Source: an uncultured Deminuibacter sp.
Lineage (GTDB): Bacteria; Bacteroidota; Bacteroidia; Chitinophagales; Chitinophagaceae
Assembly (NCBI GenBank): GCA_966424055.1
Contig: CBJLMB010000013.1
Span: forward strand, 38,562 to 102,561
Direction of reading: 5' to 3'
DNA length: 64,000 nt
Position numbers and translations under genes: made by a program. Below are positions 28,315 through 57,619 of this stretch, in pieces. A model generated the notes under the pieces. It saw only the letters and a program-made list of their open reading frames with translations, searched no databases and was not told the origin of the DNA. The first letter of the stretch is position 1. Every line of letters starts with the position of its first letter.

Positions 28315-29361
28315 TCACCCCTCGCCCCGGGGATCATCCTGCTGCGCTGTGGCTTGGTAATGCCGCCATCCCCAATACAAGCGGTTGCGTATGTTTTTAC
28401 GCAATACTTCAGGAGCCAGCACTTCAACGCCTTCGCCAAAGCCCAGTATTTCCTTTTCCAGCTCAAAGTTCAGCTGCAGTTTCATTTGTATGATGATGCC
28501 GTTTTCTCTTCGCTCAATCGTTTCCTGGCTGTGGTGAAAGGGCTTGGTTTCTACATAAGGCGCATGCAGCTGGTTTACGAATAGTTGTATTGTTCTGGGG
28601 CGCTGGTTCTGGCTCACCGTAACACCGATCACATCCTTATAAAAATCATGGGGGTGTATACCGCCGTTGCCGGTATACGCGATATTGTCTGCCTGCTCCA
28701 GCGCCTGTATCCTGTCCAGCGCCAGGTTCAGCACATACTGACCGGCCTGTTTCACACCCACAGCGAACCACCTGTTTTTAAATTCTTTCAGCCACCATAC
28801 ATGAAACACGAACTGCTGTGCTTCCCTGGCTTTGAACGAGCGGTAACTGAGCAGTACTGCTTTCTGCTGTATAACGGAATGGTACAACAGGTCGAGGTGT
28901 TCAAGTCCTTTCAGCCGTTCGTTCTTTTCAAAATCAATAACAGGGGTGGTTTGATGGGCAGATGCATATACATGGTCTTCCAGTTTTTGCACTACCTCGT
29001 TCAGGCTGGTAAAATGTGAGAAACCTTTGAATTGTTTCAGCACTTCCACCGCTTCGTTCATGCGGCCCAGATCCTGTTCACTCAGCGGAATATTGGTGAT
29101 GCTGTAGGAGGGATCTTCATAAGTATAATATTTCCGGTTCAGCACCACGATAGGGGCATTATAGCCCAGCTTATCGCTGCGCATCACCTGTATATCGGCC
29201 TGTATGGTGCGTTTGCTAATGCCCTTATCCATGCCTTCATATTCGTACAATGCATCAGATACCGCATCGATCAGCTTTTCCAGTGTCCATTTCCGCTGGC
29301 GGTTGCGCAGGCAGGCATCAATGGCTTTATAGCGGATCAGGGCATTGCGGTTAACAGGCAT
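28315..29361 (-). CDS. WYL domain-containing transcriptional regulator (HTH + WYL), divergent from rtcB
   Basis: The N-terminus MPVNRNALIRYKAIDACLRNRQRKWTLEKL… is the typical start of HTH-WYL regulators. A downstream WYL-like domain is present (…VFHVWWLKEFKNRWFAVGV…). The start is set to the internal ATG at 29361 rather than the ORF-track start at 29469. Confidence 0.75.
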   Translation of the reverse strand: MPVNRNALIRYKAIDACLRNRQRKWTLEKLIDAVSDALYEYEGMDKGISKRTIQADIQVMRSDKLGYNAPIVVLNRKYYTYEDPSYSITNIPLSEQDLGRMNEAVEVLKQFKGFSHFTSLNEVVQKLEDHVYASAHQTTPVIDFEKNERLKGLEHLDLLYHSVIQQKAVLLSYRSFKAREAQQFVFHVWWLKEFKNRWFAVGVKQAGQYVLNLALDRIQALEQADNIAYTGNGGIHPHDFYKDVIGVTVSQNQRPRTIQLFVNQLHAPYVETKPFHHSQETIERRENGIIIQMKLQLNFELEKEILGFGEGVEVLAPEVLRKNIRNRLYWGWRHYQATAQQDDPRGEG

Positions 29362-29397
29362 ACACAAAAAATTTCCGGGAAAATAGAAAATAAATTT

Positions 29398-29422
29398 TAC
29401 TGCGCAAAAAGACTGCGCAGTA
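29398..29422. promoter_or_regulatory. Inverted repeat TACTGCGCA-N7-TGCGCAGTA in the WYL-regulator/rtcB divergent promoter region; candidate operator
   Basis: A perfect 9-bp dyad read from the sequence. It lies between two divergent starts that are about 80 bp apart. Confidence 0.4.
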
Positions 29423-29438
29423 GACTTGCAGCTTTGTA

Positions 29439-30875
29439 TTGTCAAATAAAACAAGCAATATGGAACCATTGAACATCACCGGAAAAGAATTGATCAGCAT
29501 CGGTTATCCGCAATCACCCGCTATAGCCCTGGCCATGCAGCTGGTGGCACATGCCTTCAGTGCAGGGCAGCGGCAAGAAGCATTGGAGGTATTGAAAGCT
29601 GTACTGGAACAGCCGGAGGCTTTTACCGGTGATGCTGTTTTTGCCGAACTGGCCGCAGCGTTGATAGCAGAGAAAGAATCATCTACCATACAGTTACAGC
29701 AACCAGCACCTTATACAGTGTTCGGTAGCGATTTTATTGAACAGGGCGCCCGCGCACAAATGGATGCGGCCGTTAAACTGCCGGTGGCCGTAGCGGGTGC
29801 CCTGATGCCTGATGCTCACCAGGGTTATGGTTTACCTATCGGTGGGGTACTGGCTACCCGTAATGCTGTTATTCCTTATGGTGTGGGTGTGGATATCGGC
29901 TGCCGTATGTGTTTGAGCATTTATGATATACCCGGTGAACATTTAATCAGCCATAAAGCGCAGTACCAGCGTGAACTGGTGGCACATACCCTGTTTGGTG
30001 CAGGTGCGGGTTTTCATGGGCGGTACAAAGCTGATCATGCTGTGCTGGAAGACAAAACTTTTTCGCTTACTCCTTTTATCAAACAGCTGCACGATAAAGC
30101 CTATACCCAGCTGGGTACTTCAGGCGGCGGCAACCATTTTGTAGAATGGGGTGAGCTGGAAATACTGTCAGCACAAAATGCACTGGCTATTCCCAAAGGT
30201 AAATACCTGGCTCTTTTATCTCATTCCGGTTCGCGGGGCTTTGGTGCTACTATTGCAGGGTACTATACCAGGCTGGCAAAGGAATTGTGCCGTTTACCAA
30301 AAGAAGCCGCCAACCTGGCCTACCTGTCGCTGGATACTGCCGAAGGGCAGGAGTACTGGCTGGCAATGAACCTGGCCGGTAATTATGCCAGCGCCTGTCA
30401 TGAAGTAATTCATAATAAGCTTACCAAAGCCATCGGCGCACAGTTACTGGCAAGGGTGGAAAACCACCACAATTTTGCCTGGAAGGAAACCTGGAATAAC
30501 GAGGAGATGATTGTACACCGTAAAGGTGCAACACCTGCGGCCGAAGGTGTGCTGGGTATTATTCCCGGCTCTATGACAGCACCAGGCTTCCTGGTGCGTG
30601 GTAAGGGTAATACTGCTTCATTGCAATCTGCATCGCATGGTGCGGGCCGGCAGATGAGTAGGACTGCCGCCGAAAAGGCTTTCACATCCGAATGGCTGCG
30701 GGCTACACTGCGCGAGCATGATGTAACCCTGATAGGCGGCGGACTGGATGAGGCACCCGGTGCATACAAGGATATCCGTACAGTAATGGCAGCACAGCAA
30801 GACCTGGTAGAAGTACTGGCCTGCTTTACACCACGTATTGTGCGGATGGCCGACGACGGCAGCCGGGAAGATTAA
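29439..30875 (+). CDS. rtcB: RtcB family RNA-splicing/repair ligase (3'-phosphate/5'-hydroxyl nucleic acid ligase), long form
   Basis: Conserved metal and GMP-binding motifs are present: …ALMPDAHQGYGLPIGGV…, …GGGNHFVEW…, …HNHNFAWKE…, …ASHGAGRQMSR…. There is about 100 aa of N-terminal sequence ahead of the core, as in archaeal/eukaryotic-type RtcB. Confidence 0.9.
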   Translation: MSNKTSNMEPLNITGKELISIGYPQSPAIALAMQLVAHAFSAGQRQEALEVLKAVLEQPEAFTGDAVFAELAAALIAEKESSTIQLQQPAPYTVFGSDFIEQGARAQMDAAVKLPVAVAGALMPDAHQGYGLPIGGVLATRNAVIPYGVGVDIGCRMCLSIYDIPGEHLISHKAQYQRELVAHTLFGAGAGFHGRYKADHAVLEDKTFSLTPFIKQLHDKAYTQLGTSGGGNHFVEWGELEILSAQNALAIPKGKYLALLSHSGSRGFGATIAGYYTRLAKELCRLPKEAANLAYLSLDTAEGQEYWLAMNLAGNYASACHEVIHNKLTKAIGAQLLARVENHHNFAWKETWNNEEMIVHRKGATPAAEGVLGIIPGSMTAPGFLVRGKGNTASLQSASHGAGRQMSRTAAEKAFTSEWLRATLREHDVTLIGGGLDEAPGAYKDIRTVMAAQQDLVEVLACFTPRIVRMADDGSRED

Positions 30876-31029
30876 CAACGATTTTGTTGATACAACATAA
30901 AAAGCTTCCACGAGGAAGGTTGAACAGGGTATTGCCAGGCCCGGATGAGGGTTTCTTACAGCCCCGTAGTATTGCCCGCAATAGCTGGTGATATGCTGCC
31001 TGCCTTGCTGTGTTCATCAAACCATCAAT

Positions 31030-31122
31030 GGGCGGGGGTTCGAATCCCCCTGCCGGCAACAGCTGGTATAGCTCAGCGGCAGAGCAATTGAACCAATGCA
31101 GGTTCGAATCCTGCTCCAGCAG
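31030..31122 (+). ncRNA. Two tandem tRNA-like fragments with no anticodon arm; candidate tRNA-mimic / Y-RNA-like (YrlA-type) ncRNA downstream of rtcB
   Basis: Fragment 1 (31031-31054) is GGCGGGGGTTCGAATCCCCCTGCC, a T-arm-like hairpin with the canonical GGTTCGAATCC loop. Fragment 2 (31060-31122) is GCTGG-TA-TAGCTCAGCGGCAGAGCA (D-arm), a 13-nt linker, AGGTTCGAATCCT (T-arm) and GCTCCAGCA (closing acceptor-like stem of about 5 bp). The linker is too short for an anticodon arm, so neither is a functional tRNA. The whole 30876-31426 region is non-coding. Confidence 0.4.
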
Positions 31123-52772: not shown

Positions 52773-53189
52773 CTAGAAGCGTTCCAGTGCAGAGAAAAAG
52801 AAATTGCCTTCGATCGCTGCATTTTCATCGCTGTCGCTGCCATGTACTGCATTTTCACCAACAGAAGAAGCGAATTTTTTACGGATGGTTCCTTCTTCAG
52901 CCTGTGCAGGATTGGTAGCGCCGATCAGTTTCCTGAAATCTGCAACTGCATTGTCCTTTTCCAGGATAGCTGCCACAATATTACCGCTGCTCATGAATTC
53001 AACCAGCTCTCCATAAAAAGGCCTTTCTTTATGTACAGCATAGAATTCACCTGCCTGCGCAGTGGTCAGGCGGGTCCATTTCATGGCTTTAATGGTGAAG
53101 CCTGCTTTGATGATCTGATCCAGGATAGCGCCTGTGTGACCTTTGGAAGTCGCATCAGGTTTGATCATTGTAAATGTTCTGTTACCCAT
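52773..53189 (-). CDS. ndk: Nucleoside-diphosphate kinase
   Basis: [31 protein letters not shown]…NAVHGSDS… with an NDK active-site His context. 138 aa. Confidence 0.9.
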
Positions 53190-53328
53190 ATACCTTATTA
53201 GCTTGTTTGAATTAGCGCGGCAAAATTAGCGATTGATGCAGGAATTCCGCCATCCGGGCAAAAAAAAATCATCATCACCCGGTATGGCCGCTTTGAACAG
53301 CAATAACCGGGCAGGATGGGACATCCCA

Positions 53329-53706
53329 ACTCATAGCTAGCAGCTCATGGCTTGCAGCTATTAAAGGCTTCGAGCTACTAGCGTTGAGCTGCGAGAAATG
53401 CATCTCGCGGAACACGCGGAAAACGCAGAAAGGAAGATGCTTTTCAGGATGGCCCGGCAAAATAATTTATTCTATTTAAGGGCCATTTTGTCCTGATAAC
53501 AGCCCGTTCTACCTCATAGCTGGCAGCTCATGGCTTGCAGCTACTAAATGCTTCGAGCGACTAGCGTTGAGCTGCAAGGAATTCATCTTGCGGAACACGC
53601 AAAAAACGCAGAAGGGAAGATGATTTTCGGGATGGCCCGGCAAAACAATTTATTCCATTTAACGGGCTATTCCAACTCATAGCTGGCAGCTCATGGCTTG
53701 CAGCTA
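53329..53706. repeat. Tandem array (about 2.2 copies) of a ~165-183-bp unit; each unit starts with (A/C)CTCATAGCT(A/G)GCAGCTCATGGCTTGCAGCTA
   Basis: Unit starts are at 53329, 53512 and 53675 (the last is partial). Units share GCTTCGAGC(T/G)ACTAGCGTTGAGCTGC, GCGGAACACGC(G/A)(G/A)AAAACGCAGAA(A/G)GGAAGATG and GGATGGCCCGGCAAAA(T/C)AATTTATTC, at about 88% identity between units. The array lies between ndk and the nrnA-like gene. Confidence 0.7.
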
Positions 53707-53777: not shown

Positions 53778-54818
53778 ATGCGGCGAAACCCGGAATTTTG
53801 CCGCCATTCTATGCAATACATCGATCAGTTTTATCCACTGTTGGCAACCCCCGCCAAAGCAGTCGTAACAATGCACCAGAAACCAGATGGTGATGCTATG
53901 GGCTCTGCTTTGGGGCTCTACCATTTCCTTGCAGCATTGGGGCACCAGGTTACTGTAATATCGCCCACCAACTGGGCCGATTTTCTCAATTGGATGCCTG
54001 GCTGCGGCCAGGTACTGAATTTTGATTCAGAGAAGGAAAAAGCTATTGCCTTAACCAATGAAGCAGACTGGATTTTCTGCCTTGATTTTAATGTATTGCA
54101 CCGTACCAGGCATTTTGAACCGGTGCTGGCCGCTGCTCCCGGTATTAAAATTTTAATTGATCATCATCAACAACCTCAGGTTGAGGCATTTGCATATGGT
54201 GTGAGCGATGTTTCCAAAAGCTCCACCTGTGAAATGATATACGATTTTATCGTTGGTGCCGGTTATGCCAGTAAGCTGAACCTTGACATGGCCGCCTGTT
54301 TGTACACAGGCTTGATGACCGATACCGGCAGCTTCCGCTTTCCTTCCACCACCGCAGCTGTACACCGTATTATCGCACACCTAAAAGATCTGGGGCTGCA
54401 GCATACGCCCATCCACGAAAATATCTATGATAATTTCCTGGAGAACCGCCTGCGCTTTATCGGTCATGCTTTATTGAACAGATTGGATGTATTATACGAA
54501 TACAATACGGCCATCATGTCTATTCCCAAAACAGATCTGTTGCGTTTCGATATCAAGACAGGCGATTCCGAAGGACTTGTCAACTACCTGCTCACCATTG
54601 AAGGCATAAGGTTTGGTGCATTGGTGATCGACCGGGATGAAGAACGGAAATGGAGTTTCCGCAGTAAAGGCGATTTTGATGTAAACACATTTGCCAGGAA
54701 TCATTTTGAAGGAGGCGGCCATAAAAATGCAGCGGGCGGCCGTAGCAGCGAAACACTTGAACAAACAACAAAAAAATTCAAACAGGTTTTACAACAATAT
54801 GAAGCTCAACTACAATAA
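53778..54818 (+). CDS. DHH family phosphoesterase (NrnA-like bifunctional oligoribonuclease/pAp phosphatase)
   Basis: DHH motifs (…HQKPDGDAMGSAL…, …ILIDHHQQPQ…) and a DHHA1 C-terminal region with GGGH (…NHFEGGGHKNAAGG…). The true start may be the ATG at 53811. Confidence 0.8.
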   Translation: MRRNPEFCRHSMQYIDQFYPLLATPAKAVVTMHQKPDGDAMGSALGLYHFLAALGHQVTVISPTNWADFLNWMPGCGQVLNFDSEKEKAIALTNEADWIFCLDFNVLHRTRHFEPVLAAAPGIKILIDHHQQPQVEAFAYGVSDVSKSSTCEMIYDFIVGAGYASKLNLDMAACLYTGLMTDTGSFRFPSTTAAVHRIIAHLKDLGLQHTPIHENIYDNFLENRLRFIGHALLNRLDVLYEYNTAIMSIPKTDLLRFDIKTGDSEGLVNYLLTIEGIRFGALVIDRDEERKWSFRSKGDFDVNTFARNHFEGGGHKNAAGGRSSETLEQTTKKFKQVLQQYEAQLQ

Positions 54819-54819
54819 C

Positions 54820-55773
54820 ATGAAGAAATTATTATGCGTACTGGCAGTGGCTGCCGGCATTTCTGCCTGCCAGATGAATTATGAGAAAACAAAATCGGGA
54901 TTTACGTATAAGATCACCAAGGGACAAGGTGGTGAAAAACTGAAACCCGGTGCTTTTCTGAAATTCAATATTTCTTATACCATCCCCGAGAAAAAAGATA
55001 CTACCCTGAATACCACCTTCGGCAAGATACCCCTGTATGCACCTTATGATACCAGTGCCCGCTCACGCTACAGCTTTATGGAGGTGCTCTCTCAATGCGT
55101 AGTAGGTGATAGCATCACTTTTAATTTAAGTGTAGATACCCTGAAAAAACTGGGAGCTATCCAGGCTTATGACAAAACATTCAGCCGCGGCGGACAGATA
55201 CTGGGTAAGGTAAAGATCATTAAACAATTTGCTAATGAGAATGAAGTAATGACCGATTACCAGAACGAAGTGCAGCTGGAAACAAAACGTGAAGTAAGCA
55301 TGCTGGAACAGGCGCTGAATAAAGAAGGTATAAAAGTGCAGAAAACCAAGAATGGTGCTTTTGTAGAGATCACCGAGCCGGGCGATGCCGCACTGAAAGC
55401 CGATTCAGGCAAACAGGCTGCTGTCATGTACAGGGGCTACCTGCAATCGAACAAACAGGTGTTCGATACCAATATGGATACCACTAAGGGGCATACCGAT
55501 CCTTTTGTACTCACAGTAGGTGCCGGACAGGCTATCCGTGGCTGGGATGAGGCACTGCCTTATTTTGGCAAAGGCGGTAAAGGCAAGATCTATATCCCAG
55601 CTATGCTGGGTTATGGTCCGCAGGGCAACCAGGGCATTCCGCCTTTTTCCACGCTGGTATTTGATGTGGAAATCAAAGATGTGAAAACACCCGCTCCCGC
55701 TCCGCCTCCTGCCCCGGTAGCAGCCCCTGCAGCCGGCGCCCCCGCAGGTAAACCCGCCGCCGCAGGAAAATAG
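54820..55773 (+). CDS. FKBP-type peptidyl-prolyl cis-trans isomerase, lipoprotein
   Basis: Lipoprotein signal MKKLLCVLAVAAGISAC. C-terminal FKBP domain (…AVMYRGYLQSNKQVFDTN…GAGQAIRGWDEALPYFGKGGKGKIYIPAMLGYGPQGNQGIPPFSTLVFDVEIKDV) followed by a Pro/Ala-rich tail. Confidence 0.85.
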   Translation: MKKLLCVLAVAAGISACQMNYEKTKSGFTYKITKGQGGEKLKPGAFLKFNISYTIPEKKDTTLNTTFGKIPLYAPYDTSARSRYSFMEVLSQCVVGDSITFNLSVDTLKKLGAIQAYDKTFSRGGQILGKVKIIKQFANENEVMTDYQNEVQLETKREVSMLEQALNKEGIKVQKTKNGAFVEITEPGDAALKADSGKQAAVMYRGYLQSNKQVFDTNMDTTKGHTDPFVLTVGAGQAIRGWDEALPYFGKGGKGKIYIPAMLGYGPQGNQGIPPFSTLVFDVEIKDVKTPAPAPPPAPVAAPAAGAPAGKPAAAGK

Positions 55774-55801
55774 CAATAGTAAAGAATCAATTCATACAAA
55801 C

Positions 55802-55833
55802 AGCCGGTTTCAGCAATGAACCGGCTTTTTTAT
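55802..55833 (+). terminator. Rho-independent terminator after the FKBP gene (AGCCGGTTTCAGCAATGAACCGGCTTTTTTATT)
   Basis: 8-bp stem, loop, then T6. Confidence 0.65.
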
Positions 55834-55841
55834 TCGCTAGT

Positions 55842-56130
55842 GGCAAGTTGCGCTAGCGCGCCGTGAATCGCGAGTTTGCCGGTGGCGCAGGGGGATGCAG
55901 TACAACCCACTGGCCATTCACGGTTGCGGTAGCAACCACTCGCCACTCGCGAATACTGTACTGGGAAATGAAGCAAGCTTATTAAACAGGTGTACATGTA
56001 AACAACCTTACGGGAGCATTCGCGAGTAGCAAGTTGCGCTAGCGCGCCGTGAATCGCGAGTTTGCCGGTGATGTAAAGGGAATGCAGTACTATCCACTAG
56101 CGATTCACGGTTGCAGTAGCAACCACTCGC
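55842..56130. repeat. Two copies of a ~112-bp hairpin-forming repeat (55842-55953 and 56019-56130) separated by a 65-bp spacer; MITE-like. Copy 2 overlaps the 3' end of folP
   Basis: The copies are about 90% identical (TTCGC(T/G)AGT(G/A)GCAAGTTGCGCTAGCGCGCCGTGAATCGCGAGTTTGCCGGTG…CACGGTTGC(G/A)GTAGCAACCACTCGCCACTCGCG). Within each copy the 5' half is the imperfect reverse complement of the 3' half (CCGTGAATCG…CGATTCACGG; CGCGAGTGG…CCACTCGCG). Confidence 0.6.
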
Positions 56131-56965
56131 CACTCGCGGGTCCCTCATACGCAGCTACCAGCTTGATCGCTTCTATAGCCTCTTTAACATCATGTACCCG
56201 GAGTATGGAGGCGCCTTTCAACAGGGCCAGTGTATGTAATACAGTGGTGCCATTCAATGCGCCGGCGCTGTTAACCCCCAAGGTTTTCTGTACTATGGAT
56301 TTGCGGGATACACCTATCAGTATTGGCAAACCGAGTATACTGAATGCCTCCATTTCCCTGAGCAGCTGAAAATTCTGTTCTCCTGTTTTGGCAAAACAAA
56401 AACCGGGATCGATGATCACATCGGCAATACCGGCGGAATGGCAGGCGGCTGTTTGGCGGATAAAAAAGTCCAGCACTTCCTGTGTAACATGTGTGTATTG
56501 CGTTTGCTGCTGCATATTCTCCGGTGTACCACGCATATGCATGCAGATATAGGGTACCTGCAAGGAAGCTACAGTGTCAAGCATGGCTGCATCAAGGCTG
56601 CCACCGCTTACATCATTCACCATACAGGCGCCGGCGGCAACAGCCCCGGCGGCAACAGATGCAAAATAAGTGTCAACAGAAATATAGGCTTCCGGGAAGC
56701 GTTGGTGAATGGCTTCGATCACCGGCAATACACGCGATGCCTCGGTGGCTGCATCCACCTGCTGCTGGCCGGGGCGCGTGCTCTGGCCACCCAGGTCAAG
56801 AAGGGTGGCACCCTCTTGCAGCATCCGCTCTGCCTGTTTCAGGGCATCATCCACGGCGGGTTGGCGGCTGCCGCTGTAGAACGAATCCGGTGTTGTATTG
56901 ATGATACCCATCACCACCGGCTGACGGAGTGTGAGTAATCTTCCTTTGCAATTCAGCGTGAACAT
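56105..56965 (-). CDS. folP: Dihydropteroate synthase
   Basis: …VMGIINTTPDSFYSGS…, …GATLLDLGGQSTRPG…, …ISVDTY…, …MVNDVSGG…, …CMHMRG… are classic DHPS motifs. The start is placed at MFTLNCKG (56965). The C-terminal ~8 codons are encoded by the repeat element. Confidence 0.85.
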   Translation of the reverse strand: MFTLNCKGRLLTLRQPVVMGIINTTPDSFYSGSRQPAVDDALKQAERMLQEGATLLDLGGQSTRPGQQQVDAATEASRVLPVIEAIHQRFPEAYISVDTYFASVAAGAVAAGACMVNDVSGGSLDAAMLDTVASLQVPYICMHMRGTPENMQQQTQYTHVTQEVLDFFIRQTAACHSAGIADVIIDPGFCFAKTGEQNFQLLREMEAFSILGLPILIGVSRKSIVQKTLGVNSAGALNGTTVLHTLALLKGASILRVHDVKEAIEAIKLVAAYEGPASGEWLLLQP

Positions 56966-57049
56966 TGTACCCTTTCCTTTATTTTTGGTTTCCGGATGCA
57001 AACTTAAAACTGTTTATCCGGAACAGGCAGCAGAACAGTAAGGCATTTC

Positions 57050-57619
57050 ATGAACCAACATATGCATTCAACGAATACCAACCAGCAGTACGATGAGGCT
57101 GTAGCCGGCAGCAGGGATATTTTTATCAAGAAAACCGCCGATTATGGTACTTCCTGGCGGGTATTGCGCACTATTTCGGTCGTAGACCAGATTTTCATCA
57201 AAGCATTGCGCATCCGTACCATCCAGGAAAAGAAACAACAGAAGGTGGGAGATGACATCCGCTCTGAATTCATGGGTATACTCAATTATGGTGTAATAGG
57301 CCTGATACAACTGCAGCTGTCACAGCCTGCTGTGGAAGATGTGCCTGTACCCCAGGTGGAACAATGGTACCAGGAGCAAATTGCCCTGGCCAAAAACACC
57401 ATGCTCAACAAAAACCATGACTACGGTGAAGCCTGGCGCGAGATGAGCCAGGAAAGTTTTGCTGACCTCATCCTGGTTAAATTGCTGCGTATCCGGCAGA
57501 TACTGCAGAACGATGGCCGCACACTGATCAGTGAGGGGATAGATGCCAATTATATCGATATCATCAATTATGCCGCATTTGCACTTATCCTGATTGCGGA
57601 AGGAAAACATGAAGGATAG
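57050..57619 (+). CDS. DUF1599 domain-containing protein (duplicated domain)
   Basis: Two similar halves (…KKTADYGTSWRVLRTISVVDQIFIKALRIRTIQE… / …NHDYGEAWREMSQESFADLILVKLLRIRQILQ…). It sits in the commonly seen folP-adjacent position in Bacteroidetes. Confidence 0.6.
   Translation: MNQHMHSTNTNQQYDEAVAGSRDIFIKKTADYGTSWRVLRTISVVDQIFIKALRIRTIQEKKQQKVGDDIRSEFMGILNYGVIGLIQLQLSQPAVEDVPVPQVEQWYQEQIALAKNTMLNKNHDYGEAWREMSQESFADLILVKLLRIRQILQNDGRTLISEGIDANYIDIINYAAFALILIAEGKHEG

Follow-up and report, generated by a model that had tools for sequence, protein, structure and literature searches.

The region described here, from an uncultured Chitinophagaceae-like bacterium, lies in a 64-kb stretch of DNA, the whole of which was analysed and is referred to below as the window, between two genes which converge on one another. 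The first encodes an FKBP-type peptidyl-prolyl isomerase (54691-55773, plus strand; Pfam FKBP_C, E 5e-22); its stop is at 55773, while its true start is probably downstream of 54691. The second is folP (56105-56965, minus strand), which encodes a dihydropteroate synthase (DHPS) of 286 amino acids (Pfam PF00809 Pterin_bind, E 5e-77; 100% match to P0001). The FKBP gene neighbours folP in relatives too. It is followed by an intrinsic terminator (55802-55831, plus strand), which consists of a hairpin with a 9-bp stem (55802-55826) and a T-run, and a palindromic element, designated c1 (55832-55954, plus strand; 123 nt, GC 61%), starts directly where this T-run ends. A second copy in the same orientation, c2 (56018-56141, plus strand; 124 nt, GC 56%), lies beyond an AT-rich spacer (55955-56017; 63 bp, GC 41%) which is unlike either the element or its flanks. 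Two palindromic elements of approximately 90% identity had been predicted between FKBP and folP and proved to be real, with 89% identity (15 substitutions and one indel, in an alignment which included the flanks), while their dimensions had to be revised: the element measures 123-124 nt in place of ~112 bp, c2 ends at 56141 in place of 56130, and the spacer is 63 bp long in place of 65 bp. At this size, which is within the limit of ~500 bp for a miniature inverted-repeat transposable element (MITE), the element is crossed only by short chance open reading frames (ORFs) and has no coding capacity for a transposase. The GC content of the copies (56-61%) exceeds that of the residual intergenic flanks (36-41%) and of the window (48%).

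The two copies are direct repeats, and the similarity between them ends exactly at their terminal inverted repeats (TIRs) on both sides (55832-55848 and 55938-55954 in c1; 56018-56034 and 56125-56141 in c2). The DNA beyond is unrelated, both 5' of the copies (GGCTTTTTT at c1 and ACGGGAGC at c2) and 3' of them (ACTGTAC at c1 and CCCTCAT at c2), and tandem duplication of a larger segment can therefore be dismissed. Each copy is an imperfect palindrome with TIRs of 13-17 nt (ATTCGCGAGTGGCRAGT), and this 17-nt end motif was present at all four element ends with 0-2 mismatches and nowhere else in the 64 kb, where 0.2 matches would be expected by chance. The TIR, which opens with ATTCGCGAGTGGC, is made up of two tandem heptamers. 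Copy c1 reads TTCGC...GCGAA between TA dinucleotides (55831-55832 and 55954-55955, with 55833-55953 counted as the element proper), while c2 is bordered by CA and TC, has no TA flanks and ends in GG where c1 has AA; this is a comparison of target sites between two copies only, with the TA/TA flank at c1 alone.

Alignment of each copy with its own reverse complement gave 78-82 identical positions in 124-125 aligned columns and confirmed the TIRs, and a profile built from both copies matched the reverse complement of each (nhmmer, E ~4e-5). The arms of the palindrome are ~45 nt long and ~80% complementary, and they enclose a non-palindromic centre of ~30 nt, into which about half of the differences between c1 and c2 fall. 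RNA folding had been proposed as a check on the elements and gave stable structures (-54.6 to -64.1 kcal/mol): the plus- and minus-strand values were -60.5 and -64.1 kcal/mol for c1 (z -4.6 and -5.4, respectively) and -54.6 and -58.3 kcal/mol for c2 (z -4.0 and -5.6), while 0 of 200 shuffled sequences folded as well. The two hairpins are also able to pair with each other across the spacer.

The folP stop codon (TGA, 56105-56107, minus strand) is located inside c2, in the conserved CCGTGAAT stem motif of that copy. The folP ORF contains 36 nt of element sequence (56105-56140, minus strand, as read directly from the sequence), corresponding to codons 276-286 (PASGEWLLLQP) and the TGA; on the minus strand the gene reads GCG TAT GAG GGA and then, in c2, CCC GCG AGT GGC GAG TGG TTG CTA CTG CAA CCG TGA, with c2 adjoining codon Gly275. 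It had been predicted that the element supplies the last eight or so codons of folP; the overlap is real, while the count is 11 codons and a stop. The same frame in c1 reads FASGEWLLPQP followed by a stop, and the stop is therefore a built-in feature of the element.

The closest protein to FolP among 5.8 billion sequences was the FolP of a relative (P0002, 80% identity), which ends where c2 starts: the relative has ...VAAYRG and a stop, whereas the protein described here has ...VAAYEG followed by PASGEWLLLQP. The tail which follows the RVHDV motif is 26 amino acids long here, compared with a commonest length of 15 amino acids (41 proteins) among the 120 best homologues, 97 of which have tails of 12-18 amino acids within a full range of 12-29. 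The nearest FolP, encoded at locus L002, thus stops at the start of c2 and is without the element, in agreement with the original prediction that an insertion had remodelled the folP 3' end, and comparison of FolP C-termini found no orthologue which shares the tail without the repeat, leaving that claim unrefuted. The derivation of the C-terminal residues from the element is well supported by these sequence comparisons. Homology to DHPS structures in the PDB stops at residues 271-276 of 286 (5usw, E 4e-65, residues 6-271). In an AF2 model (mean pLDDT 89) the last helix spans residues 260-274, residues 279-286 have a pLDDT below 50 and the tail a pLDDT of ~39; as modelled, the added tail is an appendage, predicted to be disordered, which lies beyond the conserved DHPS TIM-barrel fold, with the 11 added residues hanging off the last helix of the barrel.

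The element was not found at the loci of other long-tailed FolP homologues. The variable tails there overlap hairpins or repeats, and the C-terminus of Chitinophagaceae-like FolP proteins is evidently plastic and has been repeatedly reshaped by intergenic structures. At one locus (L008, 1916-1972) the folP stop is spanned by a 25-nt inverted repeat (92% complementary), 35 bp from the convergent FKBP gene, and at another (L009, 2330-2400) three tandem heptamers (CCTCTAA) follow the folP stop in an intergenic region of 318 bp.

Gene order in the relative (L002) is identical to that in the window (DUF1599, folP, FKBP, DHH, NDK). Its folP-FKBP intergenic region is 127 bp long and contains one terminator hairpin, and nothing in it resembles the element. 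The non-element intergenic DNA in the window amounts to 58 bp (55774-55831) and 63 bp (55955-56017), a total of 121 bp, so that removal of both units restores the ancestral length, to the resolution allowed by a relative as distant as L002 (FolP 80% identity), from which no base-exact empty site is derivable. The spacer is probably what is left of the ancestral DNA between the two genes. In terms of the presence/absence comparison used for MITEs, L002 has the same gene pair without the element.

Further copies of the element were sought in the window and in public collections. No third copy was found in the 64-kb window (blastn, word size 7; nhmmer --max) or in any fetched locus, and no transposase or insertion sequence with matching TIRs was seen in the window. 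Two exact 20-mers represented the best-conserved stretches of the element: that from the 5' arm (GCGCCGTGAATCGCGAGTTT) gave one chance match, to a gammaproteobacterial coding region, among 185,579 species-representative genomes, and that from the 3' end (GCAACCACTCGCCACTCGCG) gave one chance match, to a GC-rich contig, in the JGI metagenomes; neither 20-mer matched IMG/VR viral contigs. A blastn search in 'distant' mode against plasmids and phages returned nothing meaningful. At the protein level, a six-frame peptide chimera of both copies had no match at E up to 10 among 5.8 billion proteins, a 46-amino acid ORF spanning c2 matched only a spurious tandem-repeat protein among 1.84 billion representatives, and the element-derived peptide was not found in called proteins (~15 billion searched). 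As far as these sequence searches extend, they indicate that the element family is not widespread. The window's own copies were not returned, and the source genome is therefore not in the DNA collections which were scanned; since the searches also used exact 20-mers or called ORFs, the absence of further copies is weak evidence, especially with regard to diverged copies. A search of viral contigs for the pattern of paired TIRs gave two matches, neither of them the element. One (L007) was a coincidence in a coding region. The other (L006, 4425-4565), on an IMG/VR phage contig with HK97-type portal, protease and capsid genes, is an element of ~125 bp located directly after a terminator hairpin, with inverted GGCGCGAGTGGCGCGAGT repeats at its ends and an unrelated interior which does not align with the folP element; the match arose only from the end bases set in the search pattern.

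The element was also compared with known classes of RNA and DNA feature. In a search of Rfam over positions 54500-57500 with E up to 1, no match covered either copy or reached the gathering score; matches near the repeats fall only on the FKBP terminator hairpin (55802-55826) and are weak and terminator-like, with an STnc450 match (55790-55858; 24.6 bits, compared with a gathering score of 37) extending over the first ~27 nt of c1. A search of the whole window against Rfam 15 at the gathering threshold gave nothing in the folP-FKBP region, and identity as a tRNA or tmRNA was rejected. It had been suggested that such hairpins could act as terminators or as sources of small RNAs. Neither role found support: on both strands, c1 and c2 lack a T-run downstream, leaving 55802-55826 as the only terminator-like site, and, in addition to the lack of an Rfam match, no Bacteroidetes-type -7 box (TAnnTTTG) for a small RNA with its own promoter was present in 55700-56250. 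An integron attC site was rejected, as the RYYYAAC and GTTRRRY cores are absent from both strands of 55800-56160 and the context is one of syntenic housekeeping genes. A REP/BIME identity was rejected on the basis of a 123-nt unit with TIRs, direct copies and a GTAG which is internal only, and an element built around an IHF site was rejected as there is no IHF consensus.

A discrete TIR-bounded unit, a hairpin along its whole length, a jump in GC content, absence from L002 and two integrations are together characteristic of small mobile repeats of the non-autonomous kind. We therefore favour, as a reasonably probable explanation, that c1 and c2 are old, diverged copies of a non-coding repeat of the MITE/ERIC/Correia type, which were inserted between FKBP and folP. 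The label of MITE had been applied to the elements from the outset; the TIRs, discrete boundaries, GC jump, absence from the relative and TA/TA flank at c1 speak for it, while the lack of a third copy in the 64-kb window or in the scanned public collections speaks against it, and this identity is plausible but unproven. The sequence itself appears to be undescribed, with no Rfam or database matches, although lineage-restricted repeat families are common.

On this explanation, the convergent FKBP and folP genes would originally have been separated by ~121-127 bp, into which the two copies were inserted by two integrations within 190 bp. The copies would have been moved in trans by a transposase recognising the TIRs, perhaps into a TA target, as at c1, at the end of the T-run of the FKBP terminator; with TA as the target, an enzyme of the IS630/Tc1 type would be expected. 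At c2, fusion of the ORF to the element would have come about either on insertion or through a later small deletion or substitution (the TIR end changing from AA to GG, with no TA); a small secondary change may be involved because c2 is without TA flanks and has GG for AA. The old folP stop has been lost, with translation running 11 codons into c2 to the element's own TGA, and the resulting tail is likely to have been tolerated rather than selected. At least 36 nt of c2 have to be part of the folP mRNA, which meets no terminator before the shared hairpin at 55802-55826, so that one or both element hairpins probably lie in the 3' end of this transcript, where they may incidentally affect its stability or processing.

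It is possible, but in our estimation unlikely, that the hairpins are instead a resident, lineage-specific functional RNA which was duplicated locally and is immobile, located in the 3' end or untranslated region of folP and acting as a 3' stabiliser, an RNase III site, a terminator or insulator independent of a U-tract, or a small-RNA precursor. Such an RNA would account for very stable folds on both strands which are strongest on the folP sense strand, for arms which are better conserved than the centre, for a folP gene without a terminator of its own ahead of the shared hairpin, and for the location of both known copies at this locus only. The differences between c1 and c2 on the folP-sense (minus) strand include one compensatory pair (G-C to A-U) and three wobble-compatible changes (two G-U/A-U and one G-C/G-U), with six further differences affecting unpaired bases (in loops, in a bulge and at one internal mismatch); however, four differences break pairs in one copy, and covariation is not significant with two sequences only. 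The missing Rfam match, T-runs and Bacteroidetes -7 box also count against a resident RNA, as does the fact that neither the nearest relative nor the other homologous loci have the structure. Moreover, exact duplication of one palindromic unit between unrelated flanks is a product of transposition and is atypical of segmental duplication.

We also considered a more specific proposal, which we judge to be quite improbable: that the element is the first member of a lineage-specific Chitinophagaceae class of intergenic repeats with tandem-heptamer ends (CGCGAGT GGCGAGT), that its hairpins are kept as a 3'-end or insulator structure of the folP mRNA, and that the FolP tail is under selection. A repeat family built on AGCTCATRGCT (34216-34312 and 53328-53700), which is unrelated to the element, shows a similar heptamer periodicity by eye.

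Supercoiling accumulates between convergent genes, and the position of the element, together with its perfect short palindromes (GCGCTAGCGC, GCAAGTTGC and GGTTGC-N4-GCAACC) and the presence of another paired palindrome at 33607-33725, would suit double-stranded DNA sites for a dimeric protein, either BIME/REP-like sites for gyrase or IHF or an operator, which organise topology at this point. However, a unit of 123 nt far exceeds a typical binding site and contains no IHF consensus, relatives which have this gene pair do not have the unit, and there is nothing to connect it with a binding protein; this explanation is very doubtful.

Finally, a second assembly from a near-identical strain (ENA; L003) differs at one position in 3263 nt and contains c1, c2 and the folP junction unchanged; L005, from the same sample, has seven mismatches in 1757 nt. 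Although the window comes from a metagenome-assembled genome and the coverage of L003 is low (~3.6x by contig name), an assembly or sequencing artefact is ruled out by the recovery of both copies and the same junction in an independent assembly, and this possibility, along with a coincidental folP overlap, is hardly credible given that assemblies which differ by SNPs elsewhere (L005 and L003) agree on the copies and the junction, that the copies are diverged and so do not represent collapsed or duplicated reads, and that the folP ORF has no alternative earlier stop.

The favoured explanation, insertion of small mobile repeats, has parallels among known systems. The Correia elements (CREE) of Neisseria, and TA-targeting MITEs generally, are ~100-155 bp long, have TIRs, form a hairpin over the whole element and duplicate a TA target; Correia elements have TIRs of 26 bp, carry IHF sites and promoter elements, insert near or into gene ends and are co-transcribed with their neighbours. 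The element described here is similar in its size, TIRs, hairpin and the TA at c1, but has no IHF consensus and has TA flanks at one of two copies. Rickettsia palindromic elements (RPE) are ~100-150 bp long and insert into coding sequence, where they add tolerated peptide segments; their insertions are in frame within ORFs and are translated from end to end, whereas here a stop codon in the reading frame of the element limits translation to 36 nt of it. REP/BIME repeats also form hairpins and occur in pairs between convergent genes and after operons, but are 20-40 nt long with a GTAG/GTGG head, are associated with RAYT transposases and form inverted BIME pairs, in contrast to the 123-nt unit, TIRs and direct copies observed here.

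For RU-1/ERIC, fusion of the repeat to gene 3' ends has been reported to eliminate the normal stop and to add residues beyond the conserved domain (PMC2759123). ERIC/RU-1 (127 bp) and RU-2/YPAL resemble the element in being imperfect palindromes of ~125 bp which have no coding gene and lie in transcribed intergenic regions beside gene ends; ERIC differs in sequence, to which the element has no similarity, in host (Enterobacteria as opposed to Bacteroidota) and in abundance, with tens to hundreds of dispersed copies compared with the two adjacent copies known here. In Coxiella burnetii, QMITE1 and QMITE2 extend 1-50 bp into the 3' ends of functional genes, an in-frame QMITE insertion forms the C-terminal 33 residues of EnhC, and the QMITE hairpin in mRNA has been proposed as a substrate of RNase III (PMC5896051). 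These are likewise small TIR-bearing hairpin elements, although they are unrelated in sequence and belong to multi-copy families with defined genome-wide distributions, and the extension described here is one of 11 amino acids in an essential folate-pathway enzyme as opposed to 33 residues in EnhC. What the element shares with ERIC/RU-1, QMITE, Correia and RPE is architecture and behaviour, and not sequence.

The fusion of palindromic repeats to gene 3' ends is already well documented in those four systems and is an ordinary event in bacteria. The folP locus offers a clean, small case, in which a selfish palindromic repeat would have rewritten the end of an essential gene without harm, its own stop replacing the old one. 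For the annotation of metagenome-assembled genomes, it follows that odd C-terminal tails can be repeat-derived.

Other repeats were observed in the window. A 183-bp unit is repeated in tandem ~2.2 times (84% identity) at 53328-53700, between the divergent ndk (52773-53189, minus strand) and a DHH-family gene (from 53778, plus strand), in an intergenic region of 588 bp compared with 195 bp in L002; the unit opens with a 31-nt motif (CTCATAGCTrGCAGCTCATGGCTTGCAGCTA) which has a periodicity of 7 nt. At 34216-34312, inverted copies of AGCTCATRGCT flank a terminator-like hairpin (CTGCAAGTGTTTTTATTCTAAAAACTTGCAG) after a gene for a CBS-domain protein. The AGCTCATRGCT sequence has 11 matches in the window, compared with 2.3 expected, and represents a second family of intergenic repeats, to which the folP element does not belong. 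In addition, two near-perfect palindromes of 33-41 nt (GAGCTATTCCATATCTCCAGGATATGGAATAGCT; 33607-33647 and 33685-33725), which are 90% identical and 78 bp apart, lie in the divergent promoter region between an ORF at 32614-33588 (minus strand; xylose-isomerase-like TIM barrel) and the CBS-domain gene, and look like candidate paired operator sites.

An RNA-like feature was also observed at 30984-31125, where tRNA-like modules lie directly downstream of a gene for the RNA ligase RtcB (29439-30875), next to a divergent gene for a WYL/WCX-domain regulator (28315-29469, minus strand). Rfam gave a tRNA match of 37 bits at 31062-31121, which has no anticodon arm and was not called by ARAGORN, and a weak match to YrlA (Y RNA-like) at 31026-31093, while a second T-arm-like sequence (GGGGGTTCGAATCCCCC) is present at 31034-31050. 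The region 30984-31125 looks like a Y-RNA-like or tRNA-mimic non-coding RNA of an RNA-repair operon.
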